A stretch of 64,000 bases of DNA, from contig OZ243037.1 in NCBI GenBank assembly GCA_965212015.1, forward strand, positions 928,001 through 992,000. The letters are read 5' to 3'. Shown in pieces: positions 24,187 to 51,112 of this stretch (position 1 is the stretch's first letter; every line of letters starts with the position of its first letter). Position numbers and translations under genes: made by a program. This DNA is from Cenarchaeum sp. Its GTDB lineage: Archaea; Thermoproteota; Nitrososphaeria; Nitrososphaerales; Nitrosopumilaceae. The notes below the pieces were generated by a model, which was not told where the DNA came from, ran no database searches, and was given only the letters and a program-made list of their open reading frames with translations.

Positions 24187-24246
24187 GTAACCGGTTAGGT
24201 TCAAGAGGGATATTTGGATCTACAGGCACGGGACCTAACCGATCAC
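24187..24246. mobile_element. 60-bp MITE (IS66-type ends), copy 1
   Basis: TIRs GTAACCGGTTAGGTTC / GGACCTAACCGATCAC; perfect 8-bp TSD GTGGGGCT (24179-24186, 24247-24254). Confidence 0.9.
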
Positions 24247-24365
24247 GTGGGGCTGTATAGTTATCGTCGCCTAGACACGAAGGATTTTTCTTCCAATTTA
24301 TCGATTCAGCCGAATTTGCTTGATCGAAGATTGACAAAGGGTCACAAAATCACCCAATCGTCAGA

Positions 24366-24893
24366 TTATGCGGGATAATACTGTTTTATTATTCGGTTAA
24401 CATCGCCCGGATCATCGGAAACACCATATGCCCACGTTCCAGAGCGGCCATCTGCATTTACTGCTTTTACCCACTCTGCTAGACCCTCATGTTTTACATC
24501 GCTTTGTGAACTCTTTTGACCCTTGACTTCCAATACTAGCATGATGAATCTTTTTTCCTTATTTCCCAACCTTACCAGAAAGTCTGGATAGTATTCCATA
24601 ATGTGACCCTCATATTGGTAGGTAATGGCAAATCCAATTCGATCATTTTTTACCCATGATTCTACTCTATCATTTCTTTCAAACTCCACAGATGCTTCCT
24701 TTTCCCATTTATTATCATAAGGAGATGGACTTGTGTGGGATTTTTTTATATTATCAATAACACCCTTGGTGGTAGACCACGGATTAACCTCGTTAGTTGA
24801 TCTTTCTTTTTTACTGGATCCAAAGATAAGTTTCTTAGATTTTATATTTTCATTCTCGATGTTTTTGGTTATATGATTAATAACAGCCTGCAT
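24366..24893 (-). pseudogene. C-terminal PD-(D/E)xK nuclease domain of a type III restriction enzyme Res subunit; helicase portion absent
   Basis: DNKWE, SWVKNDRIGFAITY, YYPDFLVRL, LVLEVKG, WVKAVN..G..W. Confidence 0.7.
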
Positions 24894-25093
24894 ATTAGAT
24901 CGTATGCGTAATCACATCAATTAAAGACTTGTAATTCCACGGCTTTGTATAATTCCAAGTAAAGAACAATCATACCCGGTTTCTATTTTTTTAAAGTTAT
25001 GGATTCGGAGATCCGTGCCTACCATGCGTTAAGTTAACAGAACCCCGCTATCCTGTCCTCTGTTCTGCCGATCTTTTTGTACGTGCGGTTCCA

Positions 25094-25125
25094 GGCATGC
25101 AAAATCCGTGCCTAGGAATCCAAAA
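25094..25125 (+). repeat. 32-bp direct repeat D, copy 1
   Basis: GGCATGCAAAATCCGTGCCTAGGAATCCAAAA, identical at 25723-25754. Confidence 0.9.
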
Positions 25126-25205
25126 CAGGTCTCACAAAGACTCAGATCCTGTGGGTCCACCCTACGTCCCTTTAGCACCAGTATTCATGATATCAGTTAA
25201 AGTGA

Positions 25206-25487
25206 TCAGTCGCCGCCATAGGCGGATTTGTGATCACACACACGGAGAAACTCTATCGTATTGTTGCTCCAGTTGATGTTATAGATTATCCTGTACTTTC
25301 TTCCAAGATCATACGAGAATACCCTTTTGCACTGCTTGTATCTGCCAAGTTGTGCGGGGTTTTCCGAATTCCTCAGCTCCTGCACCGCACTGTTGACTCT
25401 GATCTTGATTTGGGGATCCAGATTTTTGTACTGTTTCTTGAACTGTGCCTTGGCTTCAAATCCCCATTTGCTTTTCATCCTAGTCAT
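25206..25487 (-). CDS. RelE/ParE-superfamily toxin
   Basis: FKKQYKNLD, YRIIY, FLRVCDHKSAY. Confidence 0.85.
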   Translation of the reverse strand: MTRMKSKWGFEAKAQFKKQYKNLDPQIKIRVNSAVQELRNSENPAQLGRYKQCKRVFSYDLGRKYRIIYNINWSNNTIEFLRVCDHKSAYGGD

Positions 25488-25611
25488 TTAACCATGTGAT
25501 GAATTCGTCTGATGTCTTGAATTTCTTTTTGCCGTCATCGTTTGCATAAAACTCGTCAATGTCTTTGATCTCTTCTGGTGTCAGGTCGTCTGCCTGGCGC
25601 GTATCGGACAT
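25480..25611 (-). CDS. 43-aa acidic antitoxin candidate for the RelE-like toxin (not in ORF track)
   Basis: MSDTRQADDLTPEEIKDIDEFYANDDGKKKFKTSDEFITWLND*; abuts/overlaps toxin start. Confidence 0.7.
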   Translation of the reverse strand: MSDTRQADDLTPEEIKDIDEFYANDDGKKKFKTSDEFITWLND

Positions 25612-25722
25612 GCTTTGTCTAGCATGCATCCACTAAAAAAAGACTGCGTTGGGCCGGAATCAGCCGATAATTCGTCATTTTCCCCAAATAACCGGCGTTT
25701 TGTGCGATCAGCCCGGACAAAC

Positions 25723-25754
25723 GGCATGCAAAATCCGTGCCTAGGAATCCAAAA
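25723..25754 (+). repeat. 32-bp direct repeat D, copy 2
   Basis: Identical to 25094-25125. Confidence 0.9.
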
Positions 25755-26007
25755 TAAACCCCATAAAGATTCAAACCCGCGTGAGCCCATTAGGAAATCA
25801 TGCGCAAAAGGCAAAATGATGCAAAAAAAGCCCCGGCAAAACCCTCTGCCTTTTTTGCAGGATCCCAGAGGGCAAAAACACACCGGAGGGCAATTTTGAC
25901 ACCCAAACGGATCTTTTACATCCAGAATTACGGGGTTTTTCACTTGCATTACCCGTAAAACCACCACAATGGGTTTTTTCTAAAACAGAATCTACTCTGG
26001 CGTCTCC

Positions 26008-26276
26008 TCTCCCACCTGACCGCCCCATGGCAGGAATGACATTCTGATCGGCAGAGATGATCGATGCCATATTTTATGGAATTGTAAAATATGATCATGT
26101 GTGATTTTTCAGCATGTATTGAGAATGAGGATTGTCAGATTTGGTAGGGCGAGAGTTTGAAAACCTCTATCGAGTCGCTCGATTCGCGGGTTCAAATCCC
26201 GTCCCTGATATGGTTATTAGAATACTGGGAATTAAAAAGGTATCTTGGCGAGTCAGGCGTGGTTCTAGGTCTGGTC
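26008..26276 (+). repeat. Direct repeat A, copy 2 (pseudo-tRNA at 26125-26210)
   Basis: Highly similar to 19143-19415. Confidence 0.92.
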
Positions 26277-26566
26277 GTGGATGATCCGGCAGATCAGACG
26301 CCGTAAGAATGTCAAACCTTTACGTGCATCCCGACATGTGGGACACGCATCCTGCTCAGGGCCTGCCAGACTTGTCCCATACGGACAGACTGCCAAAAAA
26401 ATGCCAGACCCTCGCGTCCGGAATGTGTAACATAGCAAGACATCAATAAGAAATCCCGCCAAGCTTGGAGTTTGACCAATTCTTTAATACAGGAAATTCC
26501 AACAACAAAAATAATGACCGACCCCAGCACGTCTTGCCGTCAAGTCACCAAATACGAGGAAAGATT

Positions 26567-28036
26567 ATGCTTTCCATAACACAGTCAAAAAGGACGCATT
26601 TTGGCCTTGTTGCAATCATACTGATACTGTCCGCATACGTACATTTGTGGAATCCCGCGGGTTTTCCGGATATCTTTTTTGATGAAGGAATCTATATGCG
26701 CAGGGCAGTCAATGTGCTAGAATCCGGCAATCCGCAGGAGGGGGTGTTTTATGATCACCCGTATTTCGGCCAGCTCGTGCTTGCGGGATTTCTAAAGCTT
26801 GCCGGCTTTCCGGATTCTGTCCAGGCATCGCTTGAGGCGTCGTACCTGGTTCCAAGGGTACTGATGGGCGTGTTTGCCGTGCTAGACACGCTTCTAATCT
26901 ACGGGATTACGCAGAAAAAATTCGGGAAAAAAATAGCAGTCCTTTCCGGCATCCTGTTTGCAGTAATGCCGATTACCTGGCTGTTTAGAAGGATTCTGCT
27001 AGACACCATACTGATGCCGCTGCTGCTGTCGTCGATACTCTTTGCGCTGCATTCAAGGGACTCCCAAAGGAGGGGGATGCTGGTCCTATTCTCCGGAATA
27101 TTTCTGGGGCTGGCCATATTTACAAAGATTACCGCAGTTACAATGGTGCCGCTAGTCGCATACTTGATATTTTTGAATCCCGGCAGAATTAGGCATCTTG
27201 TGAGGTGGTTTGCCCCCGTGCTTCTCATCCCGCTCGCTTGGCCCGGCGTAAGCGTGTACCTCGGACAGTTTGATCTGTGGCTGAATGACGTGTTATGGCA
27301 GGCGGGGCGGAATACCGGGGATTTCCTTGTAGTGCTGGGATACCTTTTCAACATAGACGCCGTGATCATGGGTCTCGGACTCGGATCGTTTGTTTTTGCG
27401 GCAATAAGAAGGAACGTATTCCTGATTCTGTGGTTTTCCCCGTTTTTGCTGTTTGTGGCAAATATCGGGTTTTTGCAGTACTTTCACTATATTCTGATCA
27501 TACCGGTGATTTGCATCAGCACGGCATTTATGCTGCACTGGATAACGGACCGCATAACAGGGCCGAAAATCCGCAGTTACACGTTTGCAATAACGTGCGT
27601 AGCGGTCGCAGTTTTTGGCACGAGTGTTTCAGGCGTCATGATAAATACGGATGCAAGCTCGTCGCAGTTTGAGACCCTGAGGTTTTTGCTGGCCAATTTT
27701 GACGACAGCGACACCACGATCCTTGCAGGGCCGGCATACTCTTGGATTCTTGACGACGTGTACGGCAAAAACAACGTGCCAACCGACTATTCCCTAATCC
27801 TGTTTGAGCCAGTCAACACCGAAAAAGTCATCCTGGTTGCGGATTCACATTATGTTTCGGATATTAATCGGGACGAAATATTTCAGCGGACATATGACAG
27901 ACTGAACAACACGTACGAGATATACGGGGAGACAAGCAGAAACACCGTCTTTCCGTTTGAAGGCACAAAGTTCACAGATGGCGGGATCATCGAGATAAAA
28001 AGAAACTGGGACGGGGAATGGAATACGGCGCCGTGA
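26567..28036 (+). CDS. GT-C membrane glycosyltransferase (family 39/ArnT-PMT-like)
   Basis: FFDEGIY, YDHPYFG, multiple TM helices, GLAIFTK. Confidence 0.85.
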   Translation: MLSITQSKRTHFGLVAIILILSAYVHLWNPAGFPDIFFDEGIYMRRAVNVLESGNPQEGVFYDHPYFGQLVLAGFLKLAGFPDSVQASLEASYLVPRVLMGVFAVLDTLLIYGITQKKFGKKIAVLSGILFAVMPITWLFRRILLDTILMPLLLSSILFALHSRDSQRRGMLVLFSGIFLGLAIFTKITAVTMVPLVAYLIFLNPGRIRHLVRWFAPVLLIPLAWPGVSVYLGQFDLWLNDVLWQAGRNTGDFLVVLGYLFNIDAVIMGLGLGSFVFAAIRRNVFLILWFSPFLLFVANIGFLQYFHYILIIPVICISTAFMLHWITDRITGPKIRSYTFAITCVAVAVFGTSVSGVMINTDASSSQFETLRFLLANFDDSDTTILAGPAYSWILDDVYGKNNVPTDYSLILFEPVNTEKVILVADSHYVSDINRDEIFQRTYDRLNNTYEIYGETSRNTVFPFEGTKFTDGGIIEIKRNWDGEWNTAP

Positions 28037-28290
28037 TGCCGGCGGTGATTCCGCATGGCCGGGAACGCAGGAAAGCACAAAATATTCACCGGGCACGGCA
28101 TCGATCCAAAATCAAGCTCCGGCTCGCGGATGGATTTGCATTGTCCCCCGGTCCGGCCATGCCGGTACTGTATGACTGTGATTTGAGATCGGCCAGACCG
28201 GATTGGGCCGTAATTTGATCGTCATCTGGCCTGCAACTTCACGGCACCTGCCATAGACACAGTTATCTATGCCCGTTTCCCACAAAACCC

Positions 28291-28476
28291 ATGACAAGCT
28301 ATGCAAGCCAGGTAGCTGCAATACACAAAAGATTCAACGCGCAGATCAAGAGGGCAAAATCACGCAGGGCGCTTCAGAGTGCATACACAAAGCACAAGGC
28401 AGACCACGGGCGGATTTTGAAGAGGCACCTGAAAGAAGAGATGGCCACAGTCAAGAGGCTCAAAAACAAAATCTAA
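28291..28476 (+). CDS. Small basic helical protein
   Basis: 61 aa, K/R/H-rich, good codon pattern, isolated ORF. Confidence 0.7.
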   Translation: MTSYASQVAAIHKRFNAQIKRAKSRRALQSAYTKHKADHGRILKRHLKEEMATVKRLKNKI

Positions 28477-28547
28477 CCCAATTAAGCCCCCGGCCAAATC
28501 CCCCTTTTATTTACAATACAGCATGCCGGTGCCGCATTCGGCGCGGG

Positions 28548-28886
28548 CTAGCCGGGTTTTTCCTGCTTTTTCCCAAGCCGGGACGAGACAATCTCCCTGA
28601 GCTCATCATCAGTCTTTGAATCGGGGCTTATTCCAAGCGACTTTGAGATTGTCTCGAGCTTTTGCCTCTCGTTTTGCACGGGGCCGTCGACCTCCACTGT
28701 CTGATCCGCAAGCCCCTTTACCTGGCTTTCGACGTCGTTTTTGGCCCTGTTGTACTCGCTTACCACCCTGCCGAGCTTTTTGGCCGCATCCGGAAGCCTG
28801 TTTGTGCCCAGAATGAGGACCAGCACCGCAAATACTATAATCACCCATTCGCCCCCCGCTATGTTCAGCGCATGCCCGAGCATCAT
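28548..28886 (-). CDS. tatA: Twin-arginine translocase TatA/E subunit
   Basis: GGEWVII TM, LGTNRLPDAAKKLG amphipathic helix. Confidence 0.88.
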   Translation of the reverse strand: MMLGHALNIAGGEWVIIVFAVLVLILGTNRLPDAAKKLGRVVSEYNRAKNDVESQVKGLADQTVEVDGPVQNERQKLETISKSLGISPDSKTDDELREIVSSRLGKKQEKPG

Positions 28887-28917
28887 CCAGTACGTGCACG
28901 CCCATCAATTAAAATCA

Positions 28918-29619
28918 TTAGGCGCGGGCCGGGCCCTTGTAGGCGGCGACCATTATCGCCCCGCCCAATAGTTTCTTTTCAAACTCTACCCTCGGGAACT
29001 TTTCTCGCAGCAGCTCCTCGAGCTTTTTGTTCTGCGGCCACCGCCGGTAGGTGCCGTAAAGCGCGGCAAACTTTAGTCCGAGGCGCCCCCCCGCGGCATA
29101 CGCAATCAGCGGCAGGATTGCGCGCAGGTAAAACGACACCCCGAGCCTCAGCAGCGCGCAGTCCGGCTTGCCAAGATCCACTATTACAAACCTGCCGCCG
29201 TTTTTTAGCACCCGGTGGACCTCCGATATCGCGATTCGGAGGTTTATGGCGTCACGAAGCGAGTATCCGCACATTACTGCGTCAAACCCGCCGTCGGCAA
29301 ACGGCATGTGCTCAAAGACCCCGCACGACACGGCGTGGTTTGCAAGGTCGTCCCCGGTGTTTTTCAGCATCGGCACGAGCGGATCATACAGCACCACCTG
29401 CAGGTTTTCGCCGCACACCTCGCCTGCGGTCCGCGACATGTTTCCAAAGCCGGATCCCGCATCCAATACCACGTCCCCCGGCATGATGCGTCCCCTGATC
29501 CCCGCGCGCCTGTGCTTTGCGTCCCTTCCCAGCGAGATGCACGAGTTGACCCTGTCGTATACCGGAATAATATCCCGCAGGACACCGATTACCTCCGGCC
29601 AATATCCTGCAAGCCCCAT
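28918..29619 (-). CDS. UbiE/MenG-like SAM methyltransferase
   Basis: YDRVN, VLDAGSGFG, PFADGGFD, RVLKNGG. Confidence 0.85.
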   Translation of the reverse strand: MGLAGYWPEVIGVLRDIIPVYDRVNSCISLGRDAKHRRAGIRGRIMPGDVVLDAGSGFGNMSRTAGEVCGENLQVVLYDPLVPMLKNTGDDLANHAVSCGVFEHMPFADGGFDAVMCGYSLRDAINLRIAISEVHRVLKNGGRFVIVDLGKPDCALLRLGVSFYLRAILPLIAYAAGGRLGLKFAALYGTYRRWPQNKKLEELLREKFPRVEFEKKLLGGAIMVAAYKGPARA

Positions 29620-29646
29620 CAGTTCACACCGTCCCGGCGCAAGAGG

Positions 29647-30372
29647 CTAGACCTTGAATTTCTGCGACGCGGTTTTGGAGTATTTTTCCAGGTCCTGCTC
29701 TGTGACTTTTTCAAGCTGGCGCTTTTCGGTTGTAATCCTTGCCATCTTTAGGTGCTTTGCGTCATCCCGGGCCTCGGTCTTTAGGTTGATTGCCGCCACC
29801 GCAAGCGTGGCTGCGTCATCCAGGCTCATGTCAGGGCTGTATGTCTTTTCCAAAAATTCGTTTACCTCTTCGGAGCCGGCACCGATTGCCACTGCGGAAT
29901 ACGGCACAAACGTGCCGCTTGGATCCGTGACATAGATGCGCTCCCCCTTTTGATCCACGCCGGCGATTATCAGCGCCACCCCGTACGGCCGGACGCCGGA
30001 ATACTGCGTGAACTGGTGGCACTGATCCGCCAGGTGCTTGGCGACAGTCTCCACCTCTACGGACTCGTCGTACGTCATTTTGTTTCCCTGTGAGAAATAT
30101 CTCGCATTGTCCACCTGAACCCGCGCATCCGGTATGTATCCGGCTGCGGCCACGCCGATGTGCCTGTCTATTTGGAATATTTTCTGAGTGATATCTGATG
30201 CCTGCAAGGCGCGCGGCTTCTCCTCGACTGCGACTACCACGCCCTCCTTTGTCCTGATGCCGATTGCCAGCGTGCCGCGCTTTACCGTCTCTATGGCGTA
30301 TTCCACCTGGTATATGCGGCCGTCTGGCGAATACATGGTGGGCGTCATGTCATACCCGCGCGATGTCATCAT
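29647..30372 (-). CDS. psmA: Proteasome alpha subunit
   Basis: GYDMTPTMYSPDGRIYQVEYA, RPYGV, TDPSG. Confidence 0.96.
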   Translation of the reverse strand: MMTSRGYDMTPTMYSPDGRIYQVEYAIETVKRGTLAIGIRTKEGVVVAVEEKPRALQASDITQKIFQIDRHIGVAAAGYIPDARVQVDNARYFSQGNKMTYDESVEVETVAKHLADQCHQFTQYSGVRPYGVALIIAGVDQKGERIYVTDPSGTFVPYSAVAIGAGSEEVNEFLEKTYSPDMSLDDAATLAVAAINLKTEARDDAKHLKMARITTEKRQLEKVTEQDLEKYSKTASQKFKV

Positions 30373-30479
30373 GTATGGTCGTGAATTTCCAGCAAATTTA
30401 AGGGTAATTATCAGAAAACCGGCCGAATATGGAACAGAACTGGCAATAACGCTATATTGGAAACGGCCGCACCACACCC

Positions 30480-30863
30480 ATGAGTGCAGGCCAGCTAGTA
30501 GAGTTCAAGGCGATAATCAGGACCAGAAATCCCGGCCCCAGAAGGCCCGACAGGCAGGCAAGAAAGCTGCTGCTATACCTCTTTACTGGCACGAGGGGCG
30601 GCTTTACCAGGCTGAGGATAATCATGCTTTTGCTGGACAGGCCGTACAACACGCACCAGCTTGCGCAAAGGATCGGCATGGACTACAAGGCAGTCCAGCA
30701 CCACATGCAGGTACTGGGCAAAAACAACCTAATCTCCAAGTCCGGCGACAGGTATGGCGCAGTCTTTTACCTGTCAAACTTTTTGGAGATCAACATAAAC
30801 GCCCTGGAGGAGGTAATCGAAAAGCTGGAAAAAAGCATGAGCTACAAAAAGGTGTACATTTAG
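30480..30863 (+). CDS. ArsR-like winged-helix transcription factor
   Basis: GTRGGFTRLRI, NTHQLA..MDYKAVQHH. Confidence 0.88.
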   Translation: MSAGQLVEFKAIIRTRNPGPRRPDRQARKLLLYLFTGTRGGFTRLRIIMLLLDRPYNTHQLAQRIGMDYKAVQHHMQVLGKNNLISKSGDRYGAVFYLSNFLEININALEEVIEKLEKSMSYKKVYI

Positions 30864-30968
30864 AAACGCGCGTCCCTGTCCTCCAAATGGCAGGCGTACC
30901 GGGGCGATCAAGCCTGGGCATCCGCGGGGATGACAGACGGGACACAAACTTAAAATATTATACGGGGT

Positions 30969-32258
30969 TTGATTACTGCAAGATTGATAAAAAACGATCC
31001 TTTTGCAAACGCGACAAAGCAGGTCAATGACGCGTGCGATATTTTAAAGATAAAAGACGAGGGCCTGAGGGAATATCTGGCAATGCCAAACAGGCTCCTG
31101 CGGGTCAAGATTCCAGTCAGGATGGACGACGGAAAGATCCGCATCTTTACTGGGTTCCGCTGCCAGCACAACAACGACCGCGGCCCGTACAAGGGCGGCA
31201 TACGCTACTTTAACCCCAAGGGCGGAGTCGAGTACATGGAGCGCGAGGTCATGGCACTCTCTTCATGGATGACGTGGAAGTGCGCCATCGTGGACATACC
31301 GCTCGGCGGCGGCAAGGGCGGGATTTACGTCAATCCAAAGACAGAAAAGATAAGCGACGCAGAAAAGGAGAGGATTACCAGGAGATTCGCATACATGATT
31401 GCCGAAGTCATCGGGCCAGAAAAGGACATTCCCGCACCGGACGTCTATACCACGGGAAAGGAAATGACGCAGATAATGGACGTGTACGGCAAGATGAACG
31501 GAAACAGGTATCTGCCCGGCGTCATTACCGGCAAGCCGATTCCGATGGGCGGCTCGCTTGCGCGAAACGTGGCAACCGGACTCGGCGCCGCATACTGTAC
31601 GAGGGAGGCGGCCGGAACGCTAAAGATCAGCATAAAGGGCGCAAAGGTGGTGCTGCAGGGGTTTGGAAACGCGTCGACCTTTGCGGGCGAGTACCTTGAA
31701 AAGATGGGCGCCAGTATAATCGGCGCCAGTGATTCAAAGGGATCAATAATCGTACCCGGCGGCTTCAAGGTGGCAAAGCTGCTCGAGCACAAGCGTAAAA
31801 ACGGATCAGTCGTGGGATTTGCCGGCAGCAAAAAGGCAAGCACGGAGGAGCTGCTTACGACAAAGTGCGACGTCCTGGTTCCCGGCGCGCTAGAAAACCA
31901 GATCGACGCAAAGATTGCAGCAAAGCTGCAGTGCAGGATACTGACCGAGGCCGCAAACGGGCCCACGCTTCCGGAGGCAGACCCGATAATACACAAGAAA
32001 AAGATTCTGGTAATTCCGGACATACTGGCAAACTCTGGCGGCGTGTGCATATCGTACCTGGAATGGGTCCAGAACAACCAGGGATACTATTGGAGCTTCG
32101 ACGAGGTCGCAAAAAAGATGGAGGTCAACATTGTAAAGGGGTTCAAGGACTCGTATGCGTTTGCGCAAAAGCACAAGATAGACATGAGAAAGGCAGCAAT
32201 GGTGCTTGCGGTAAGCAGGGTAGTCGAGGCCTTTGAGCACAAGGGCATCTGGCCATAG
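30969..32258 (+). CDS. gdhA: Glutamate dehydrogenase
   Basis: GPYKGGIR, GGGKGG, DIPAPDV, QGFGN, EAANGP; start may be TTG 30984. Confidence 0.96.
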   Translation: MITARLIKNDPFANATKQVNDACDILKIKDEGLREYLAMPNRLLRVKIPVRMDDGKIRIFTGFRCQHNNDRGPYKGGIRYFNPKGGVEYMEREVMALSSWMTWKCAIVDIPLGGGKGGIYVNPKTEKISDAEKERITRRFAYMIAEVIGPEKDIPAPDVYTTGKEMTQIMDVYGKMNGNRYLPGVITGKPIPMGGSLARNVATGLGAAYCTREAAGTLKISIKGAKVVLQGFGNASTFAGEYLEKMGASIIGASDSKGSIIVPGGFKVAKLLEHKRKNGSVVGFAGSKKASTEELLTTKCDVLVPGALENQIDAKIAAKLQCRILTEAANGPTLPEADPIIHKKKILVIPDILANSGGVCISYLEWVQNNQGYYWSFDEVAKKMEVNIVKGFKDSYAFAQKHKIDMRKAAMVLAVSRVVEAFEHKGIWP

Positions 32259-32285
32259 TCAGCCGATTCCAGGCATGCCTGTAAA

Positions 32286-32939: not shown

Positions 32940-32955
32940 ACCGGCGCAACAGGGC

Positions 32956-33960: not shown

Positions 33961-34200
33961 TTCGCAGGGTCTGCGGATGCTACGGATTTAACGATTATCA
34001 TTGTGCGTGGCGCCTGCGGGCTATTTGAAGGGCAGCAGGGCATAGGAGCCATAGTATACGACTAGCGCCGATACTGCCATGCCAATCCACCATCCCCTGC
34101 CGGACATGCCTACGGGAGGGAAATTCTCAATAATAAACGTAAAGGGCGTCTGCGCCCCGAATCAAAGATTATTACGGGAAAAGACACACCCGTCTTTTGT

Positions 34201-34273
34201 GGCCTCCGTCGTATAGTGGCTAGTATAGGGGACTGTGGATCCCCGGACGGGAGTTCGATTCCCCCCGGAGGCC
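34201..34273 (+). tRNA. tRNA-His (GTG), encoded G-1
   Basis: GCCTCCG/CGGAGGC, C73, GGGGA-CTGTGGA-TCCCC. Confidence 0.95.
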
Positions 34274-34280
34274 CTCAAAC

Positions 34281-34625: not shown

Positions 34626-34668
34626 GCCGTAGCGTGTCGGCCACAAAATAAAAGGTTTGCACGGGGGG

Positions 34669-35427: not shown

Positions 35428-35449
35428 TTGGCCAGCTGCACCAGTCGGG

Positions 35450-41806: not shown

Positions 41807-41830
41807 GATCTTACCTGCCGCCTAGGGATT

Positions 41831-42769: not shown

Positions 42770-43587
42770 TTAAACGCAATCGAGCAGTATCCCACTACCG
42801 AAGTCTTGTCGCCAGAGACGTCGCCGCTTGTGGCGTATTTCAAGAGCTCCCCGCCCGTGGCGCCAAGGCCGCCGCACGCCTCCATGGTGGCCGCAATGGC
42901 CCCATAGCCGCAGGCGCTTACCGCCTTTTGTGCAAGCACCCCGTAAAACTCGCCGGTATCCATCCCCAGTATGGCGTCTATGAGCGCCCCGTCCTGCGTG
43001 CGGGCAAATCCGTCGGGCTCATAGTGCGTGAGATCCGACGATCCTATTATCAACATGTTTTTGTTTTTTCCAAGCCCCGATATTGCCTGTCCCACCATGA
43101 CGGCAGTCCCCATGTCCTGGTCTGCCAGGGCTATCGGCAGTATCTTAAAGTCGTGCGAAAAGAACTGCTGCAGCATGGGAACCTGGACCTCCAGGCTGTG
43201 CTCGCGCGCATGCGAGGACGAGTCCACCTCTATTCCCGAAAGGCGCGATAACTCGTCGGCTGATTCCGAGTCGACTTTGACGCATCCCAGCGGGGTCTGC
43301 CATGTGCAGTCCCGCATGGTCGCAACGCCGCATCCGTCCCCGCTATGGTTTGGCCCCACCATTACGAACAGATCCGGCCGCTGCTCCCTGATTGCGTGAA
43401 ACGAGTGGCATGCGACGGCCCCGGAATACTCGTATGCCGCATGCGGGCATATTATTCCGACTGCGCCGCGGCTCGGGCCTTTTTTCGGCCCGAGCTCGTG
43501 TGCAACGCACCCGCTTATGGCCCGCCGGAGCGGCGCTGCGTCGCCTGGATAAAACGCCCCGGCAACTGCCGGAGTCCTGGTATGCAT
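42766..43587 (-). CDS. MEMO1 family protein
   Basis: PAVAGAFYP, PHA.YEYSG, EHSLEVQ, SSDLTHY, CGYG. Confidence 0.93.
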   Translation of the reverse strand: MHTRTPAVAGAFYPGDAAPLRRAISGCVAHELGPKKGPSRGAVGIICPHAAYEYSGAVACHSFHAIREQRPDLFVMVGPNHSGDGCGVATMRDCTWQTPLGCVKVDSESADELSRLSGIEVDSSSHAREHSLEVQVPMLQQFFSHDFKILPIALADQDMGTAVMVGQAISGLGKNKNMLIIGSSDLTHYEPDGFARTQDGALIDAILGMDTGEFYGVLAQKAVSACGYGAIAATMEACGGLGATGGELLKYATSGDVSGDKTSVVGYCSIAFN

Positions 43588-44210
43588 TATTCTGCTGCCT
43601 CTTCTATTATCTTTGTCTCAAAATCGTCAATGTCGAGCTTCATGGACTCGTCTTTTTTTAGCTCGCCCTTTTCAATGAGTATCTGCCGCGCAAGCAGCCA
43701 GTATACCGTCGCCAGCGACTTGCGGCCGCGGTTGTTTGCAGGTATGATGACGTCAAGCTTTGAGGTGATATTGTCCGTGTTTGCAACCCCGATTACGGGA
43801 ATTCCCGCGTTTGTCGCCTCAGTTACCGCCTGGCCGTCCACCTGCGGGTCAGATACCAGCAGCAGCTTCGGCTCGATATAGTACGGCAGTGACGGATTAG
43901 TCAGCGTCCCCGGCATGAACCGTCCGAGCATCGGCACTGCCCCGACTGTCTCGCAGAATTTCTCTATCGGGCTCTGGGCGTACTTGCCGCCGGAGCACAC
44001 AATTACGTTTTCCAGCCCGGCCTTTGTGATGAACTTTGCAGACGTCTCGATTCTTGCCAGCGTCGTGTCCAGGTCTATCATGTAAAGGCCGCCCGGGCTT
44101 GCCTGAGTGATAAAGGACTTCATGAACTTTGTCTTGACCTGTGTTCCCACATCGATTCCCGTGGAGAGTACTTTTTTCTTGATGTCTGGAATCTCAGTCT
44201 CTTGGCTCAT
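43587..44210 (-). CDS. rpsB: 30S ribosomal protein S2
   Basis: GRFMPGTLTNP, IPANNRG. Confidence 0.96.
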   Translation of the reverse strand: MSQETEIPDIKKKVLSTGIDVGTQVKTKFMKSFITQASPGGLYMIDLDTTLARIETSAKFITKAGLENVIVCSGGKYAQSPIEKFCETVGAVPMLGRFMPGTLTNPSLPYYIEPKLLLVSDPQVDGQAVTEATNAGIPVIGVANTDNITSKLDVIIPANNRGRKSLATVYWLLARQILIEKGELKKDESMKLDIDDFETKIIEEAAE

Positions 44211-44217
44211 CGGATTT

Positions 44218-45456
44218 TTAAAATTCCGCCATACCTCGTATTAAATCATGCTCCGAGAGCCGGATTAGCTCGTTTAGTTTTGCGACCCGCTCGCCGCCCA
44301 CGATTCCCGCCTTGAGCATCCTGGAGCCGGTTGCGATTCCAATGTGGGATATGTGGCCGTCTGAGGACTCGCCGGACCTGTGCGAGGTGACCAGCGCAAC
44401 TCCGCTGGCGTCTGCCTCCCTTGCAAATTCCATGGCATCAAACAGGCTGCCTGCCTGGTTTACCTTGAGAATCGCAGCATTGCACGCCTTTTTTTGGACC
44501 GCCACCTGCAGTATTTTCCTGCTCGTCACGGTGAGATCGTCGCCTGCAATCATTACTGCGGGAAACCTAGAGGTGAGCTCGGCCATGTCGTCGAATGCCT
44601 CCTCGTGTACTGCGTCCTCGGCGTATGCCAGCTTGTACTTTTCAATAATTGAGGCGGCAAAGTCTATCTGCTCGCCTCGGGAGTTTTCAAATCCCGACCT
44701 GTCATAGACGTATTTTTCCCTTTTCTGGTCCCACTGCGTGGAGGAGGCAAAGTCGACTCCGAGTGAGACCTCCCTGCCAAGCGTGAATCCCAGGTTCTCG
44801 CACGCCGTGACGGATGCCTCCAGTGCGCCCTCGTTGTCAAGCCTTGGCGCCCAGCCCCCCTCGTCACCCCGCCCGTTTGTAAAGCCGGGATCCCTTTTTT
44901 GCAGGACGTCGCGCAGCTCGCGGTGGACTGCCATGTTGGTCTCAATTGCGTCGCGGACGTTCTTTGAGCCTGTGGCACTGACTAGTATCTCCTGTATGTC
45001 CGGCGTGCCCGGCCCTGCGTGTGCGCCGCCGCCGAGTATGTTTCCAAGCGGGAAGGGGAACCGATAGTCCGGGCCTCCCGGAAGCGTCCGGAACAGCGGC
45101 AGGCCCGAGGCCTTTGCGGCCGACTCTGCTGATGCTATGCTGATTGCAAACGCAGCCGCCCCGCCGATGCCAGAATAGTCCGGCGTGCCGTCAATGTCGC
45201 GGATTGCGCCGTGCACCGACTCTGGATCGCCTGCCTCCAGCCCGACGAACTTGGTGGCGTTACCGTTTAGAATCTCCAGGCTTTTTTGCGGGCCTCCTGC
45301 GGGAAAGCTTGCCGCCTCGTGGCGCCCCACGCTTGCACCCGACGGGGCGCAGACGCGCCCGGTAAACCGGCCGTCGGACTCGACGTCCACCTCGATTGTC
45401 CTGGCTGCCCGGCTGTTGTAGATAATGCGTCCCTTAATCGAGGTGATCTTTGGCAA
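44218..45456 (-). CDS. eno: Enolase
   Basis: PSGASVG, GDEGGW, GDDL.VT, KVNQ.G, SHRSGE. Confidence 0.95.
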   Translation of the reverse strand: MPKITSIKGRIIYNSRAARTIEVDVESDGRFTGRVCAPSGASVGRHEAASFPAGGPQKSLEILNGNATKFVGLEAGDPESVHGAIRDIDGTPDYSGIGGAAAFAISIASAESAAKASGLPLFRTLPGGPDYRFPFPLGNILGGGAHAGPGTPDIQEILVSATGSKNVRDAIETNMAVHRELRDVLQKRDPGFTNGRGDEGGWAPRLDNEGALEASVTACENLGFTLGREVSLGVDFASSTQWDQKREKYVYDRSGFENSRGEQIDFAASIIEKYKLAYAEDAVHEEAFDDMAELTSRFPAVMIAGDDLTVTSRKILQVAVQKKACNAAILKVNQAGSLFDAMEFAREADASGVALVTSHRSGESSDGHISHIGIATGSRMLKAGIVGGERVAKLNELIRLSEHDLIRGMAEF

Positions 45457-45457
45457 C

Positions 45458-45700
45458 CTATTCTAGCTCAGACTGGACTTCCTGGTGCCTTTTTTGAATT
45501 GCCTCGTAAAACGGAACAATCTGTCTAATCGTTTCAATGGATGTTAAGAGCATTCTCCGGCAGCAGTATCTCTTGACTCCAAGCGAGTCCATCACCTTTG
45601 CGGGCCCCTCGCCCAGCTTTGTCCTTGCCTTATAGTCTTCGTACTTGTCGGCGATCATGTTTCCGCAGGTAAAGCAACGCACCGGAACTAACATGCTCAC
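45458..45700 (-). CDS. rpoN: DNA-directed RNA polymerase subunit N (Rpo10)
   Basis: PVRCFTCG, RYCCRRM. Confidence 0.96.
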   Translation of the reverse strand: MSMLVPVRCFTCGNMIADKYEDYKARTKLGEGPAKVMDSLGVKRYCCRRMLLTSIETIRQIVPFYEAIQKRHQEVQSELE

Positions 45701-45745
45701 GGTGAGTAATCAAGGATTATAAAAACCCTGCACGGAGTTTTTGTT

Positions 45746-45830
45746 GCGGGTGTAGCCCAGCCTGGCCAAAGGCGCTAGCTTGAGGGGCTAGTCTCTCAGG
45801 AGTTCGTGGGTTCGAATCCCACCGCCCGCA
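45746..45830 (+). tRNA. tRNA-Leu (GAG)
   Basis: GCGGGTG/CGCCCGC, CTAGC-TTGAGGG-GCTAG, long variable arm. Confidence 0.96.
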
Positions 45831-45835
45831 TTTCA

Positions 45836-46453
45836 TTACCTACTAGTCAGCCTTGCAATGGCGTCGATCAGGTCGGATCTGCGCATCTCTTCTGTAATGA
45901 CGGCCCTTACGTCCTCGATTAGCATCCTGTTGACGTCCAGCTTTCTTTTTGCCTCCTTGAGCACCTTGTCATAGGTGGCAAACGGATAGAGCAGCTCGTA
46001 CAGCTCCTCCATCACCTGGAATATCCCCTGCGCCTCTTTTGTGCGGCCTGCGCGTATCCTGTCAAACACCAGCCGCTTTAGCTCCCCGATACAGTCAAGC
46101 AGGCCAAGCACGTACGACGGGCCGGAGACGGCCAGCGCGGCTGCAGAGGGAACAGGCCTCTTGTCTGCAACGGCAATAAGCGAAAAGGCCTCGACTAGCT
46201 CCTGCTCCGGGACGGCTATGTGCCTTCTGAGGTTGTTAGTTGCCCTGGCCCTCTGGGATCTTAGCAGCGAGTCTGCCCTCTTGGCCTTTGTCCGAGCAGA
46301 GTCCATGTCCCCCCTGTGCACGGCGATTATCGACTGGCTGCACAGTATGACTATCTGTCTCGTGTTTTTTATTAAAAATTCGCGCGAGTCCCTGACGGTC
46401 TCTAGTGATTTTGAGATTTTGCCGAGGGACGCCCTGGCGCTTTTGAGCGACAC
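45836..46453 (-). CDS. Translin-family RNA-binding protein
   Basis: SREFLIK, QELVEA, YVLGLLDCIGELKR, KRKLDV; GTG start at 46453. Confidence 0.85.
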   Translation of the reverse strand: MSLKSARASLGKISKSLETVRDSREFLIKNTRQIVILCSQSIIAVHRGDMDSARTKAKRADSLLRSQRARATNNLRRHIAVPEQELVEAFSLIAVADKRPVPSAAALAVSGPSYVLGLLDCIGELKRLVFDRIRAGRTKEAQGIFQVMEELYELLYPFATYDKVLKEAKRKLDVNRMLIEDVRAVITEEMRRSDLIDAIARLTSR

Positions 46454-46501
46454 AAACGACGGTGGGATGCTCCAAGATAAAGCCGTTTGCAAATGCAGGC
46501 G

Positions 46502-46561
46502 GTAACAGGCTAGGTCCAAGAGGGATATTTGGATCCACAGGCGCCGGACCTAACCGATTAC
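46502..46561. mobile_element. 60-bp MITE, copy 2
   Basis: GTAACAGGCTAGGTCC...GGACCTAACCGATTAC; TSD TGCAGGCG/TGTAGGCG (7/8). Confidence 0.88.
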
Positions 46562-46759
46562 TGTAGGCGCGCGACGTGTAACAGTTGGCTACTAGCTTGC
46601 ATGACTGGAATTTGCGTGTGATCGGCCTTTGGAATGGCAGGCGGGTCGCCGTACCGCCGAGTCAATTTCGTGGTTTTTTGATGGAAATCATATCCAAGGT
46701 ACAATTAGATCTATTTTGCATAACTCATTAACCTTTAATATGCGCGATTACAAAATGGC

Positions 46760-47209
46760 ATGATGGAGCATATTGGATATTTTGCATATGGTTCCAATCT
46801 GAATAAATCACAAATGCGGAAAAGGGTTGGAGCATGGCATTCGTCAAAAAGAGCACGTCTGATAGGATACGAGTTTGTGAGTAATGTTAAATCCAAAAGA
46901 TGGGATTGCAATACATCCAACGTGAGGGTGGGAAATGAAAATGATGTGGTATACGGAGTTGTCTATTTTATAACAAGAGAACAGCTTGACCAAATGACAT
47001 CCTTTGAAGGAATTGATCCGAGGTATGTGGATGTCACGGATGAAGATGAAAATGTGATACGCAATGTTGCAGTTTATTATTGGGACTGCGAGCATCCATC
47101 AGAAACACCTTCCAAAGCATACATAGATACCGTGATCGAAGGCATTATAGAGCATCAATATTCTGAGAGTGTAATTACAAAGGTAAAAAAAAGTTTTAAA
47201 AGATTATAG
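46760..47209 (+). CDS. Gamma-glutamylcyclotransferase (GGCT/AIG2-like) family protein, AT-rich
   Basis: YFAYGSNL, VYGVVY, LD..FEG, PSKAY. Confidence 0.88.
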   Translation: MMEHIGYFAYGSNLNKSQMRKRVGAWHSSKRARLIGYEFVSNVKSKRWDCNTSNVRVGNENDVVYGVVYFITREQLDQMTSFEGIDPRYVDVTDEDENVIRNVAVYYWDCEHPSETPSKAYIDTVIEGIIEHQYSESVITKVKKSFKRL

Positions 47210-47554
47210 TCAAAGGTATGAGTATTTGGAACCAGAGTAACCCTCATGAAATATTTCATCACGTCTAGCGAATATCTTTGTCCTGAAATACTCACGTGGG
47301 GAAATATTTCATCGCATCAAATGTAGTATTCAGATGGCGTTTTGAATGTAGTGGATCAGGTTTTCGTTTTGTCTGATGGGCGCCTGCCGGCATGCCAGTT
47401 TCCAGCTGTGCCAGTCCGGATCCCTGCCCATCACTCACGCAATCCCCCTTATGGGCAAAGCTCCATTTCTGCAATCAGGCAGATCCCGATCTGTTGCATC
47501 TGACACACATTGATGCAGTCTTTATATTAAAAAAAACCCCGCAGGATTGGCAGC

Positions 47555-49234
47555 CTATGGCCGCGTGTATGCCTGCGTATCTGCGCCGCCTAGCGTGTCA
47601 CGGTACGCCTGCGGAATGAGATCCCAGGACCTCTGTATCAGGTGCTGCACCATAGAGTCAAGCACGTACGTCCTGGCCCAGTCGTCCTGGCTGCGGATGG
47701 ATCTTCCAAACCCCTGCAGCAGCTTTGTCAGCGTCTGCGAGGCGTACCAGAGCGGGTATTTTTTCATCTTTAGGGCGACGCGCTTGTCAGAAAAGTTCGG
47801 GTACGGAATCTTTGAGATGATTTGAAACCTGGACATGTCGTCTTTGAGGTCGACTCCCTCCCACAGCGACGAGGAGAGAAGCACGCCGCCAGGGTCGCAA
47901 GAGTGCTCCGCTATTATCTCGTCAGGCGTCATTGCGCCCTCGCCTGCGTGGCATATCCTGATCCTCTTTCTGTTGGATTCTGACAGGTTGTCGCGTATCT
48001 GCCGGCACCTGGCCCTAGACGAGGTCAGCACCAGTCCGCGCTGGCCTGCGTGCGCGCAGAGCAGCTCGTCGATTCTCCCTATCACTGCCAGCTCGTCGGC
48101 CAGCGACGACCTGTATCCCAGGCTCCGGACGTTGAGAAACTCGATCCTGCGGTTCTCCAGCGGAAAGGGCGACACGGGCGCATCGACTATTGCCACATCG
48201 GACGGCGCAATGCCCGTAGTCTCGCAAAAAGAATTCCTGTTAATAGTGGCAGACATGAATACCTGCACCGGCGCATCAAAGAACTTTTGGACGTACTTTG
48301 AGATGTCAAGCGGCCTGACGTCGGCCAGGGAGTACTGCGGGTTTCGCGGCAGGTTTATGACAAAGTTGTCCTTGTTGGAGCTAATCTCGGCGCTTGCCGC
48401 CGCATACCTCGTATATCCCGCATCAAGGCGGTTTAGCAGGTCATAGTCCGGATTCTCCTCAAAGCCCGGACTCTGCTGAATGTCCGATATTTTTTTGGAA
48501 TAGTGCCCTGCCATGTCGTCGAGCAGCGCGGTGATGAGATCAATGTCGGACAGGTCGTACGAGTCCGTGTCGATGCCGCACTCTTCTGCATCCCTCCTGT
48601 TGATGGCGATTCCTATGAACTGGAGTATCTGATCCTCGATCTTGTGCGCCTCGTCGAATATCGCCACCGGCCGGTCCAGGTACTTTGCAAAGGTCTTTTT
48701 GTTGTACTTCATTATCTGGAAATAGGCGTAATAGTTCCACAAAGAGTGCGGGGAGATTAGCGCCGTGTATTTCTGATCATAGTACGGGCAGACTGTCCCC
48801 TCAAAGGAGCCGGATTCAAAGTCCTCTATTGCCGGCTTGTACTTGCAGTTGTACGTCTTGCCGTCCCTTTTTTCCTGGCACTGGCCCTTGTTGCACGTCA
48901 TGCGCAGCTCCATCGCCCTGGCAAGCTCCTTTTTTGCAACGCCGTTTTGCTCCATGATCTTCATGCACGCAAAGTTCGACTTGCCCTTGACCGGCCTGAG
49001 CATTTCAAACTCTTTTGAATACTGGTCCTGCAGCTGCTTTGAGGCGGTGACTATGAACGAGCCGCCATAGTGCAGTGAAAGGTTGACTGCAATCGGGGAT
49101 TTTCCCACCCCGGTGGGCGCAGATACGATGATTTTTTCGTACCCCGACTTTATGCTTTCCTCGATTCGGGCCACCAGATCCACCTGGATTGGCCGCGGCG
49201 TCAGGCCGGCAGGAAAGCTCCCAATCATTGCCAT
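47555..49234 (-). CDS. DinG/Rad3-like SF2 helicase
   Basis: APTGVGKS, DEAH, MSAT, EGVD, QGFGRSIR. Confidence 0.92.
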   Translation of the reverse strand: MAMIGSFPAGLTPRPIQVDLVARIEESIKSGYEKIIVSAPTGVGKSPIAVNLSLHYGGSFIVTASKQLQDQYSKEFEMLRPVKGKSNFACMKIMEQNGVAKKELARAMELRMTCNKGQCQEKRDGKTYNCKYKPAIEDFESGSFEGTVCPYYDQKYTALISPHSLWNYYAYFQIMKYNKKTFAKYLDRPVAIFDEAHKIEDQILQFIGIAINRRDAEECGIDTDSYDLSDIDLITALLDDMAGHYSKKISDIQQSPGFEENPDYDLLNRLDAGYTRYAAASAEISSNKDNFVINLPRNPQYSLADVRPLDISKYVQKFFDAPVQVFMSATINRNSFCETTGIAPSDVAIVDAPVSPFPLENRRIEFLNVRSLGYRSSLADELAVIGRIDELLCAHAGQRGLVLTSSRARCRQIRDNLSESNRKRIRICHAGEGAMTPDEIIAEHSCDPGGVLLSSSLWEGVDLKDDMSRFQIISKIPYPNFSDKRVALKMKKYPLWYASQTLTKLLQGFGRSIRSQDDWARTYVLDSMVQHLIQRSWDLIPQAYRDTLGGADTQAYTRP

Positions 49235-49301
49235 GCACGCATCACCCCCGCGCGTCCCCCGCCGGTCCGCGCCCGTGGCAGCACAATGCGGCGCATGCCG
49301 T

Positions 49302-49850
49302 CTAGGCCACGGGATAGCCGCGCTCGGCCCTCAGTACAGGCATCTTTTGGTGCAGCCAGACGAGCAGCTTTATGAACTCGTCCGCCTCGTTTTTAATGTA
49401 ATTTTCAATCTCGCCGTGCTGCCCGTTGCGGTACCACTGCGGAATAGTCAGGCCGCTGTGCGGCTTGCCCGTTAGCTTGTCAAGGCCAGAGCCCTTGAAC
49501 TGCCCGTTGTTCATGAGAACCGCAATGCTGTGCAGATCAATGCACGGCCTTGACATTATGTCGATCGGGTGCTTGCTGTATTTTTTGGACTTTGATAGAA
49601 GAAACTTGTGCTCGAATGTCAGGTTGAATCCCACGGGGACAAAGTCAAAGCCGTACGTGTGTATGATCTTGGACTCGGTGATGAACTTTTGGATCATCGC
49701 CTCCTCGCCTTCCTCCCATTCCTTGAGAATGACTAGCTCGCCTGTCGGCCTGCCCGTTCCCTGCTCTAGCTCCTGGTACTGTATCGTTATGATCTTGTCG
49801 CCGAAAACATCCAGCCCCTCTGTCTCGATGTCAAGATAGTAATTTCCCAC
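49302..49850 (-). CDS. RNase H-like/DEDD 3'-5' exonuclease domain protein
   Basis: YLDIETEG (ExoI), GFNL.F (ExoII), Y...E (ExoIII). Confidence 0.8.
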   Translation of the reverse strand: MGNYYLDIETEGLDVFGDKIITIQYQELEQGTGRPTGELVILKEWEEGEEAMIQKFITESKIIHTYGFDFVPVGFNLTFEHKFLLSKSKKYSKHPIDIMSRPCIDLHSIAVLMNNGQFKGSGLDKLTGKPHSGLTIPQWYRNGQHGEIENYIKNEADEFIKLLVWLHQKMPVLRAERGYPVA

Positions 49851-50068
49851 AAGCTCGGTGCGGCGCGCCGTATTATAATTATTGCCCAGCGGACTCTTTC
49901 CGGGTCATGCAATCAGGATCGGCTGATCGCCTCCGATCATTGCCAAAAAAGGGAGTCACGCCCGGTGGACGCGGGTCGGTAATTTTGGCAGAAAGCGATC
50001 GGAACGCCTACAATATTCCTGCCATTTTTTTTCTAAACACATTAAAACCCGTTTTTTTATATTATTCC

Positions 50069-50574
50069 ATGAAAAAATCACACACCTTGGCATATTTGGA
50101 TACCAATATTCTGCTGATGATTATAAAATATGATGAATTTCCTGATTACGACTATAAACAATCCATTCACAAATGCTATATGACCACAGGATAAAGATCC
50201 CGCAGATAGTATTAGGGGAGGCGCTAGCAGTGATGTTGAAAAGCGAGTCAGATCCGGGGCGGATCTTGCAATGCACGACAGATATGGGCAACATATCAAA
50301 CAAGTGGAAGCTTGATTCTGACAAGTTTCCTCCCCCTAACAATCTGATCATACAAAGAGCAAAAATACTATCTGATCTTAGCGGCGTGGTAAACAATATG
50401 GATTCCTTGATTTTGGCTCATGCGATAGAGGATGGAGATGCCACGCATTTTTTAACGACTGACAGGCCGTTGAAAAACCCCCTAGTATTAAGCCATATCG
50501 AGGACCTGAAAAAGAATGGAACACGCAACCAGATCCTGAACATACCGGCCGAGTTTACAATAGGCAAAGACTAG
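50069..50574 (+). pseudogene. PIN-domain ribonuclease, frameshifted near 50172
   Basis: Frame 1 AYLDTNIL joins frame 2 IPQIVLGE...MDSLILAHA...FLTTD. Confidence 0.75.
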
Positions 50575-51004
50575 TCAATTTCGAATAGACCGAATCAATG
50601 AACTTTGGGTCGTGATCACACTTTAGCATGTAAAAATGCTCCAGTTTTAGGCCCTTGTCAAGATTCGTCTCGTGCAGTATGGTTGCTGCAATCTCCAGCC
50701 AAGCAGTACTCTTGCCCCTCAATACTGACAAAAATTCCTCATGACGCAGCGCAGGCGGTGCCGATGCAGATGCCATGTTTGCAACGTCCAGATTATAGTA
50801 ATCCGACGTCAATCCACGCGAGTATGGTCCGCGCAGGTGTATATTGTACGCATAGCCTAGATCCAGCCCGAAATGTTTGGCCAGATATGTGTATTTTTGA
50901 ACCTTTAGGCGGTTCTCAAAGCCCTCGTCACTGTCATCTTTTAATCTGGCTACATTAACCATGCCCTGTCCCGAAAGATACGATACAAACTCCCCAAGTG
51001 CCAT
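50555..51004 (-). CDS. YwgA/SocA-like winged-helix putative antitoxin
   Basis: RLKVQKYTYL, Y...RGPYS..L, WLEIAATI. Confidence 0.75.
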   Translation of the reverse strand: MALGEFVSYLSGQGMVNVARLKDDSDEGFENRLKVQKYTYLAKHFGLDLGYAYNIHLRGPYSRGLTSDYYNLDVANMASASAPPALRHEEFLSVLRGKSTAWLEIAATILHETNLDKGLKLEHFYMLKCDHDPKFIDSVYSKLTSLCLL

Positions 51005-51052
51005 ACACTTAACTGGCCACTCTACTCATATAAAATTACGCCATTGGTTAGT

Positions 51053-51112
51053 GCAACAGGTTAGGTTCAAGAGGGATATTTGGATCTACAGGCACGGGAC
51101 CTAACCGGATAC
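51053..51112. mobile_element. 60-bp MITE, copy 3
   Basis: GCAACAGGTTAGGTTC...GGACCTAACCGGATAC; TSD TGGTTAGT/TGGCTAGT (7/8). Confidence 0.88.

Follow-up and report, generated by a model that had tools for sequence, protein, structure and literature searches.

Three copies of a 60-bp element stand at nearly the same distance upstream of three genes in a stretch of archaeal DNA, and the question they raise is whether this position was chosen and, if so, what was recognized. The stretch, which we call the window, is 64,000 nt long and comes from Cenarchaeum sp. (assembly GCA_965212015.1, contig OZ243037.1, positions 928,001 to 992,000 of the forward strand). The element is, as discussed below, a miniature inverted-repeat transposable element (MITE) related to insertion sequences (ISs) of the IS66 family. 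To the first half of the question we answer with high confidence that the transposon family inserts at promoters in a targeted way. As to the second half, and granting such targeting, the chance that TATA-binding protein (TBP) and transcription factor B (TFB) play a part seems slightly better than even. The whole proposal, in which the IS66 lineage would target the upstream edge of the core promoter and its landmark would be the bent DNA of the B recognition element (BRE) and the TATA box with TBP and TFB bound to it, is in our judgment evenly poised between right and wrong, this last step included.

The three copies and their surroundings in the window are the following.

24187 to 24246, plus strand: MITE copy 1, 60 bp, upstream of the hicB-like/hicA pair
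24179 to 24186, no strand: gene-proximal target-site duplication of copy 1, GTGGGGCT; second copy GTGGGGCT at 24247 to 24254, 8/8 bases match
24161 to 24168, minus strand: TATA box TTTATTAC of the hicB-like gene, starting 19 nt away from copy 1; position weight matrix (PWM) score 8.2
23918 to 24139, minus strand: open reading frame (ORF) of 73 aa, hicB-like by position, ATG at 24139; 47 nt between ORF and MITE
23689 to 23928, minus strand: HicA toxin gene, PF07927
46502 to 46561, plus strand: MITE copy 2, missing along with one of its duplication copies (68 bp in all) from the contigs of sequencing runs X3 and X4
46494 to 46501, no strand: target-site duplication of copy 2, TGCAGGCG; second copy TGTAGGCG at 46562 to 46569, 7/8 bases match
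46474 to 46481, minus strand: TATA box TTTATCTT of the translin gene, 21 nt from the MITE end; PWM score 5.9
45836 to 46453, minus strand: translin gene, PF01997, GTG start at 46453
51053 to 51112, plus strand: MITE copy 3, upstream of the 149-aa gene
51045 to 51052, no strand: target-site duplication of copy 3, TGGTTAGT; second copy TGGCTAGT at 51113 to 51120, 7/8 bases match
51027 to 51034, minus strand: TATA box TTTATATG of the 149-aa gene, starting 19 nt away from copy 3; PWM score 8.9
50555 to 51004, minus strand: 149-aa ORF, first described as YwgA-like, ATG at 51004, no Pfam match

Each copy is 60 bp long, with imperfect terminal inverted repeats beginning GTAAC/GCAAC, and the 48-nt core of the element occurs exactly twice in the window, against no occurrence in 100 shuffles. 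The distance from the element end to the first base of the start codon is 48, 49 and 49 nt (ATG at 24139, GTG at 46453 and ATG at 51004, all on the minus strand), and the TATA-like boxes on the same strand start 19, 21 and 19 nt from the ends of copies 1, 2 and 3. A preliminary description of the window had reported these copies, their positions, their 8-bp duplications and both sets of distances, and the sequence bears all of them out. The same description had chosen the GTG start of translin on its reader's own judgment; this choice is backed by four same-genus orthologues, which start at the same position (ATG in three of them, GTG in one). Its gene names hold in part: Pfam confirms Translin, as well as HicA downstream of the ORF named hicB, but at E of at most 0.001 it has no match for the 73-aa ORF called hicB nor for the 149-aa ORF called YwgA-like.

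What a promoter looks like in this organism has to be read from its genome, a single contig of 1,764,220 bp with 51% G+C. It carries an archaeal amoA gene (357208 to 357756), and the organism is thus an ammonia-oxidising archaeon; its family comprises many genera, with a genome size of about 1.5 Mb. Genes were called with a simple, indeed crude, finder of our own, and cover 81% of this compact genome; promoters were inferred from TATA matches and called start codons. Over 769 upstream regions taken genome-wide, TATA-like words peak at -29/-30 from the start codon. An archaeal TATA box lies about 25 nt before the transcription start. It follows that most genes are leaderless, and that the start codon marks the transcription start. 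The weight matrix for the TATA box was derived from 747 upstream regions of the host genome not near a MITE; its consensus is TTTAAATA, and a match is a score of at least 6.

An iterated nhmmer search of the host genome (1.76 Mb) yields 39 MITE matches at E of at most 1, of which 34 have E below 1e-5. The 25 full-length copies have pairwise identities of 0.62 to 0.98, with a median of 0.82. The flanking bases match in at least seven of eight positions in 15 of the 34 copies, every word being different, and in six of eight in 4 more. Each flank was scanned outward from the element end, a column being the number of nucleotides from that end. A TATA match at columns 17-22, on at least one side, accompanies 22 of the 34 copies, compared with 11.8% of random intergenic junctions (p = 5e-13); this null rate comes from 100,000 random junctions, and is 4.5% over the whole genome. 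If a start codon is also required on the same side, 45-56 nt away and opening an ORF of at least 45 aa, the count is 15/34 against a null of 2.2% (p = 2e-16). The matches begin most often at column 19 (10 cases), the others being at 21 (6), 22 (3), 20 (2), 18 (2), 17 (1) and 15 (1). A reduced set, from which one duplicated locus, one paralogous flank, one copy abutting another MITE and one partial copy were dropped, has a TATA match in 20/30 copies and a TATA match with start codon in 13/30. Four more copies, including the translin copy (TTTATCTT, 5.9), fall just under the TATA threshold, with a start codon at 47-51 nt.

In the window, the three copies are oriented alike with respect to their genes, as had been pointed out. 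However, across the genome 14 copies have the TATA match beside their left end alone, 7 beside their right end alone and 2 beside both (two-sided p = 0.19), so that the uniform orientation of the window copies is no general rule.

The genes behind the hit promoters, which we named from reading their sequences and of which only Translin and HicA were checked against Pfam, presumably include L15e, L30e, aIF2-beta, the ATPase proteolipid (atpK), a SPOUT-like gene, translin, small ORFs and giant surface proteins. Were these promoters there before the element? Orthologues of rpl15e, aIF2-beta, rpl30e and translin were found in all four same-genus genomes searched, and in all four the spacing from the upstream TATA box to the start codon is conserved, with a MITE in none. 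The conserved TATA word at rpl15e is TTTCAGATATTAAGGG, and the translin TATA block GCAAACGGCTTTATC is identical in the same-genus genome G001, which has no MITE there. At one of the three window loci, the state before insertion can be seen. Contigs of four sequencing runs from two studies cover the region; the strain of the second study (runs X3 and X4) is about 2.7% diverged, with 116 differences in 4304 nt, and its contig joins 46496 to 46565, skipping 68 bp that correspond to MITE copy 2 (60) and one duplication copy (8). The translin locus of this strain is an exact empty site. Since the duplications differ and an exact empty site exists in another strain, the insertions are independent, as first proposed.

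The element itself was found in none of 40 relatives searched, among them 4 congeneric genomes and 20 others from the family. Scans with core patterns of the MITE gave 25 stretches of genome contigs, which are single chance matches (two archaeal ones that were inspected are unrelated), and 45 stretches of metagenome contigs, none with the extended MITE pattern. With the patterns used, the MITE was thus not found outside the lineage of its own species. An Rfam scan of the window identified only three tRNAs, and no family matching the MITE.

Runs X3 and X4 differ from the window at a second place: a contig joins 49892 to 51443, with 7 other letters between, so that a 1.55-kb stretch (49893 to 51442) that holds the 149-aa gene and MITE copy 3 is missing in that strain.

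Where does the element come from? The first 15 nt of each MITE end are the two end types of decayed IS copies of about 1.4 kb in the same genome. One complete larger repeat, of about 1.4 kb at about 541585 to 542992, contains a frameshifted IS66-type transposase, and the others are truncated; DDE_Tnp_IS66 (PF03050) fragments above the Pfam cut-off adjoin matching ends in the host genome. No intact IS66-type transposase of the parent kind is left there. The ends of the decayed ISs have a TATA match of their own at columns 19-21 in 3/6 cases by PWM, and in 2 more by eye. The element is short and noncoding, has many copies with inverted repeats and differing duplications, shares the ends of its parent and has a precise empty site; such features support its classification as a MITE, a non-autonomous deletion derivative of a single-ORF IS of the IS66 family. 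Membership in IS66 had also been suggested in the preliminary description, and the shared ends and DDE_Tnp_IS66 fragments agree with it, as do the 8-bp duplication and the ends that start with GTAA. The transposases of the intact relatives described next score 73.7 and 99.1 bits against PF03050. One long ORF (447-540 aa) fills these elements of 1.4-1.7 kb, and the accessory tnpA/tnpB genes of canonical IS66 elements are not among their contents. Presumably they belong with the single-ORF members that ISfinder groups as ISBst12-like.

Is the offset a property of the MITE, or of the transposases that move such elements? Using an intact 80-aa stretch of its reading frame as the query, we looked for the decayed transposase in another 300 genomes of the family, and found IS66-type relatives in 35 of them (a tally that includes genome G221). 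Some of these relatives are full-length and active, and they keep the same offset. The most telling is found in G082, a genome of another genus (GC 61%), with 16 copies of a 1688-bp IS66-type IS whose transposase has 511 aa and matches PF03050. These copies are recent, being 98.8-100% identical. A TATA match at columns 17-22 accompanies 10/16 of them, nearly all at exactly 19, against 1.4% expected (p = 2.6e-15), and by eye the count is 14-15/16; 5/16 also have the spaced start codon, against 0.4%. In the orientation of the IS, the TATA box is at the left end of 4 copies and at the right end of 6, and here too the element inserts either way round.

We repeated the comparison with a window-scan test that allows for choosing the best 4-column window, based on 1000 sets drawn at random from the same loci. 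The counts are 10/16 for G082 (p at most 0.001, null mean 0.77), 3/6 for G274 (p = 0.003), 4/8 for G099 (p = 0.002), and 5/15 for G096 (p at most 0.001), this last set including truncated copies.

These four genomes are very rich in ISs, with 47-109 PF01609 matches per genome, and the IS66-type query has up to 18 per genome among the matches listed. The host genome, unlike them, keeps only decayed IS66-type copies.

Other IS groups of the same genomes served as controls. Three groups with duplications of about 4 bp have a TATA association of 1/10, 1/10 and 1/10 (p from 0.72 to 0.85); they are defined by transposases of 459 aa in G096 (PF13359 and PF01609), 435 aa in G096 (PF01609) and 406 aa in G274 (with no Pfam scan of its own). 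The fixed offset upstream of TATA boxes that had been noticed in three copies is thus found across the genome and in intact relatives, and is absent from three other IS groups. A repeat of about 1.03 kb in the host genome, considered as a further control IS, was rejected: its copies are only 81-94% alike and it looks like a gene family.

One intended control behaved otherwise. ISs of type PF01609 with 9-bp duplications were first meant as a negative control, and proved to be TATA-adjacent instead: three groups, in G082, G099 and G274 (loci L179-L208), have a TATA match at columns 16-18 in 6/10, 5/10 and 4/10 copies (p at most 0.002). They form a second, unrelated transposase type that uses the TATA landmark at an offset of its own, 16-18 nt.

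Assuming that the position is indeed chosen, how could it be found? In the mechanism that we propose, IS66-lineage transposases would pick their target at the upstream edge of the archaeal core promoter, with an 8-bp staggered cut ending 10 bp upstream of the TATA box. For leaderless genes, the cuts would fall at about -40 and -48 from the start of transcription and translation, just outside the BRE; in promoter coordinates, the duplication would span about -48 to -41, and the BRE would start about three bases further in. The element enters either way round and leaves the core promoter intact, and for that reason the site could act as a safe haven in a compact genome; an undamaged core promoter would also fit the finding that copies have lasted in front of genes for ribosomal proteins and translation factors. 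The landmark would be the BRE-TATA DNA as bound or bent by TBP and TFB, sensed by protein contact or through the adjacent distorted DNA, and not the naked sequence. Extended to both transposase types, the idea would be that in ammonia-oxidising archaea the transposases of two or more unrelated IS families bind to the promoter complex formed with TBP and TFB and insert their elements at a set distance from that complex, as a convergent counterpart of Ty3 and TFIIIB; this we propose tentatively, at a little less than an even chance.

The alternative that survives best also assumes targeted insertion, with a transposase that reads the sequence or the intrinsic shape of BRE and TATA on naked DNA, free of TBP, TFB and any pre-initiation complex. 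When the TATA-side flanks are aligned by distance, conservation appears at the TATA box (columns 19-25) and weakly at the A-rich columns 14-16, where the BRE lies, and the duplicated 8 bp and the far flank have no information content. The preliminary description had noted that the targets share little, and had suggested that position rather than sequence is read. The first part is true of the duplicated 8 bp, which lack a consensus, but the second is not established, a shared target sequence being present in the TATA box and the weak A's: it is the promoter itself. Since nothing else of the target is conserved, the transposase could read the BRE-TATA sequence directly. Two further points favour this alternative: sigma-A-targeting transposases of the ISLre2 and ISKra4 groups carry a sequence signature linked to specificity, as passages of PMC3942029 describe, and a symmetric transpososome combined with a one-sided motif explains insertion in either orientation. 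The points on the other side are not decisive. The TATA variants accepted, such as TTTATTAC, TATATATA, GAATAAAT and GTTTACAA, are as loose as those of promoters generally. A properly spaced start codon follows 15/22 (68%) of the MITE-adjacent TATA boxes, compared with about 19% (0.022/0.118) of random intergenic TATA-like words. Finally, two unrelated transposase types would each have had to evolve TATA recognition. The last two points hint at the promoter bound by TBP and TFB as the landmark. A single complex prediction, of the G082 transposase with TBP and the TFB core, gave no support and no verdict; G082 has 2 TBP genes, and the TFB paralogues number at least 5. The data are compatible both with direct reading of BRE and TATA and with reading of the bent promoter in its TBP-TFB-bound form, and we regard direct reading as a serious possibility, though distinctly short of even.

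Several observations weigh against docking on TBP and TFB, or against the strength of the pattern on which it would be built. A DNA-binding domain of the transposase could recognize the TATA box and the weak A's of columns 14-16 with no help from a host protein. Between 11 and 12 of the 34 MITE copies have no TATA match above threshold, and some IS copies lie inside genes (for example, L115 in G082); targeting is thus a preference and not a rule. The AT-rich genome G289 (GC 33%) holds the intact IS most closely related to the parent (63% identity over 64 aa), an element of 1438 bp present in 14 copies, 13/14 of which have 8-bp duplications, and there the signal is weak: 6/14 copies have a TATA match at columns 17-22 against 16.8% (p = 0.02), and the window-scan test of the same count is marginal (p = 0.057), with TATA and start codon together in 3/14 against 1.5% (p = 0.001). 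The null rates for genomes other than the host drew on all positions of the fetched loci, intergenic or not, and copies within a genome, like genomes within a family, are not fully independent. The promoters, moreover, are predicted ones, known from TATA matches and crude start-codon calls.

A different explanation, also raised in the preliminary description, is that the MITE is retained as a portable regulatory module, be it a binding site, an insulator or a terminator hairpin, that works only at a given distance from the TATA box. Archaeal activators do bind directly upstream of the BRE, where the element lies; its inverted repeats can form a hairpin, and copies stand upstream of housekeeping genes such as rpl15e, rpl30e, aIF2-beta and atpK. 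However, this hairpin is unexceptional (-6.6 kcal/mol, z = -1.5), and the translin copy is missing in another strain, as are all copies in congeners, although the promoters are otherwise conserved. Because ISs of 1.4-2.5 kb, with unrelated interiors and different inverted repeats, take the same offset, and because either orientation occurs, retention as a module is very unlikely as the main cause, even if single MITE copies may have been co-opted.

The weakest explanation invokes no targeting at all, only random insertion followed by purifying selection that spares copies at harmless spots just upstream of core promoters, and we set it aside as highly improbable: gene calls do fill 81% of this compact genome, the MITE copies are old (median identity 0.82) and insertions within a core promoter or a gene would be lost, but harmless survival alone cannot produce the pattern since three IS groups under the same selection in the same genomes show 1/10 each, the strongest signal comes from the 16 recent copies of G082, the offset is sharp to 1-3 nt where the intergenic space on the far side often extends over tens to hundreds of nucleotides, random intergenic junctions reach 11.8% and not 65%, and the offsets are specific to the family, 19-21 against 16-18.

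Transposition directed at promoters is known from a small number of bacterial elements, which use sigma-A promoters, and from retrotransposons of yeast and amoebae, which use Pol III genes. The yeast Ty3 element, a long terminal repeat retrotransposon with an integrase, integrates at Pol III start sites via TFIIIB (TBP and Brf1); Ty1 and the Dictyostelium TRE elements show related safe-haven targeting in compact genomes, by convergence. The likeness to Ty3 would lie in fixed-offset insertion next to an initiation complex that contains TBP, the contact with TBP and TFB being conjectural here. Ty3, however, inserts at the start site itself, and the DDE transposons of this study about 40-48 bp upstream.

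The bacterial elements are the closer comparison. According to the passages of PMC3942029 that treat them, sigma-A promoters are hit 15-17 bp upstream of their -35 box by TnGBS and by ISs of the ISLre2 and ISKra4 groups, and elements of the TnGBS and ISLre2 kind with nearly symmetric inverted repeats insert there in both orientations. This targeting occurs in two distant transposase families, and is interpreted as gene avoidance. Our elements resemble them in that DDE transposases insert them a fixed, short way upstream of a core promoter element more often than by chance. TnGBS and ISLre2, however, use Mutator-like DDE transposases at bacterial sigma-A promoters, and the promoters here are archaeal, with TATA box and BRE, served by TBP and TFB. 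The transposases match PF03050 or PF01609 only, and not the Mutator-like p-MULT signature; they work like that group, and do not belong to it. Two other differences are the offset, 10 bp from duplication to TATA box, and the fact that a 60-bp MITE shows targeting too. In archaea, the same passages of PMC3942029 mention only ISH6, suggested to favour promoters or intergenic DNA; as described there, it duplicates an AT-rich motif (AANATNTT) and so inserts into an AT-rich word. Unlike ISH6, our elements duplicate 8 bp that lack a consensus, and the TATA box is 10 bp away and intact. With IS66 they share 8-bp duplications, inverted repeats starting GTAA/GTAT and a DDE_Tnp_IS66 transposase, and they differ from canonical members in the absence of TnpA/TnpB accessory ORFs from elements of 1.4-1.7 kb. 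Our full-text literature search, together with passages of PMC3942029 (whose tables S1 and S2 list elements and insertion sites and may include archaeal ones) and of a 2026 survey of archaeal ISs (PMC13343696), turned up no account of promoter targeting at a fixed offset, either for archaea or for the IS66 family.

Targeting of this kind helps to explain how the IS-rich archaeal genomes of the host family tolerate many insertions, and it turns insertion sites into promoter annotations that come at no cost, in organisms difficult to cultivate. Archaeal TBP and TFB are homologues of the factors used by Ty3, which allows a connection between DNA transposons of prokaryotes and initiation complexes of the eukaryotic kind to be tested, and intact transposases such as the 511-aa protein of G082 are concrete candidates for biochemistry. 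If docking on TBP and TFB is true, insertion sites would also record, as natural footprints, which promoters were occupied, and the transposases could serve to place DNA at the upstream border of promoters with a TATA box.

Some smaller observations remain. In the window, positions 23689 to 24139 hold a two-gene cassette in which the 73-aa ORF overlaps the HicA gene, with MITE copy 1 in the cassette promoter; it is a probable hicBA toxin-antitoxin pair. Elsewhere in the genome, at 604116 to 604860, two tandem paralogous genes of 51 aa have a MITE at the same place, with near-identical promoter flanks, and these two MITEs point in opposite directions: either one site received two insertions, or the interior of a MITE was inverted after a duplication. 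At 361417 to 361540, about 3.7 kb downstream of amoA, two MITEs lie head to tail 8 nt apart, and on the outer side of the second one a TATA match starts at column 21. Finally, between TATA box and ATG of two paralogous genes for giant surface proteins (at least 983 aa), 10 or 11 G stand in a row, at about 391500 to 391550 and about 1006360 to 1006408; changes in the length of this run would alter the spacing from TATA box to start codon, which makes it a candidate on/off switch.

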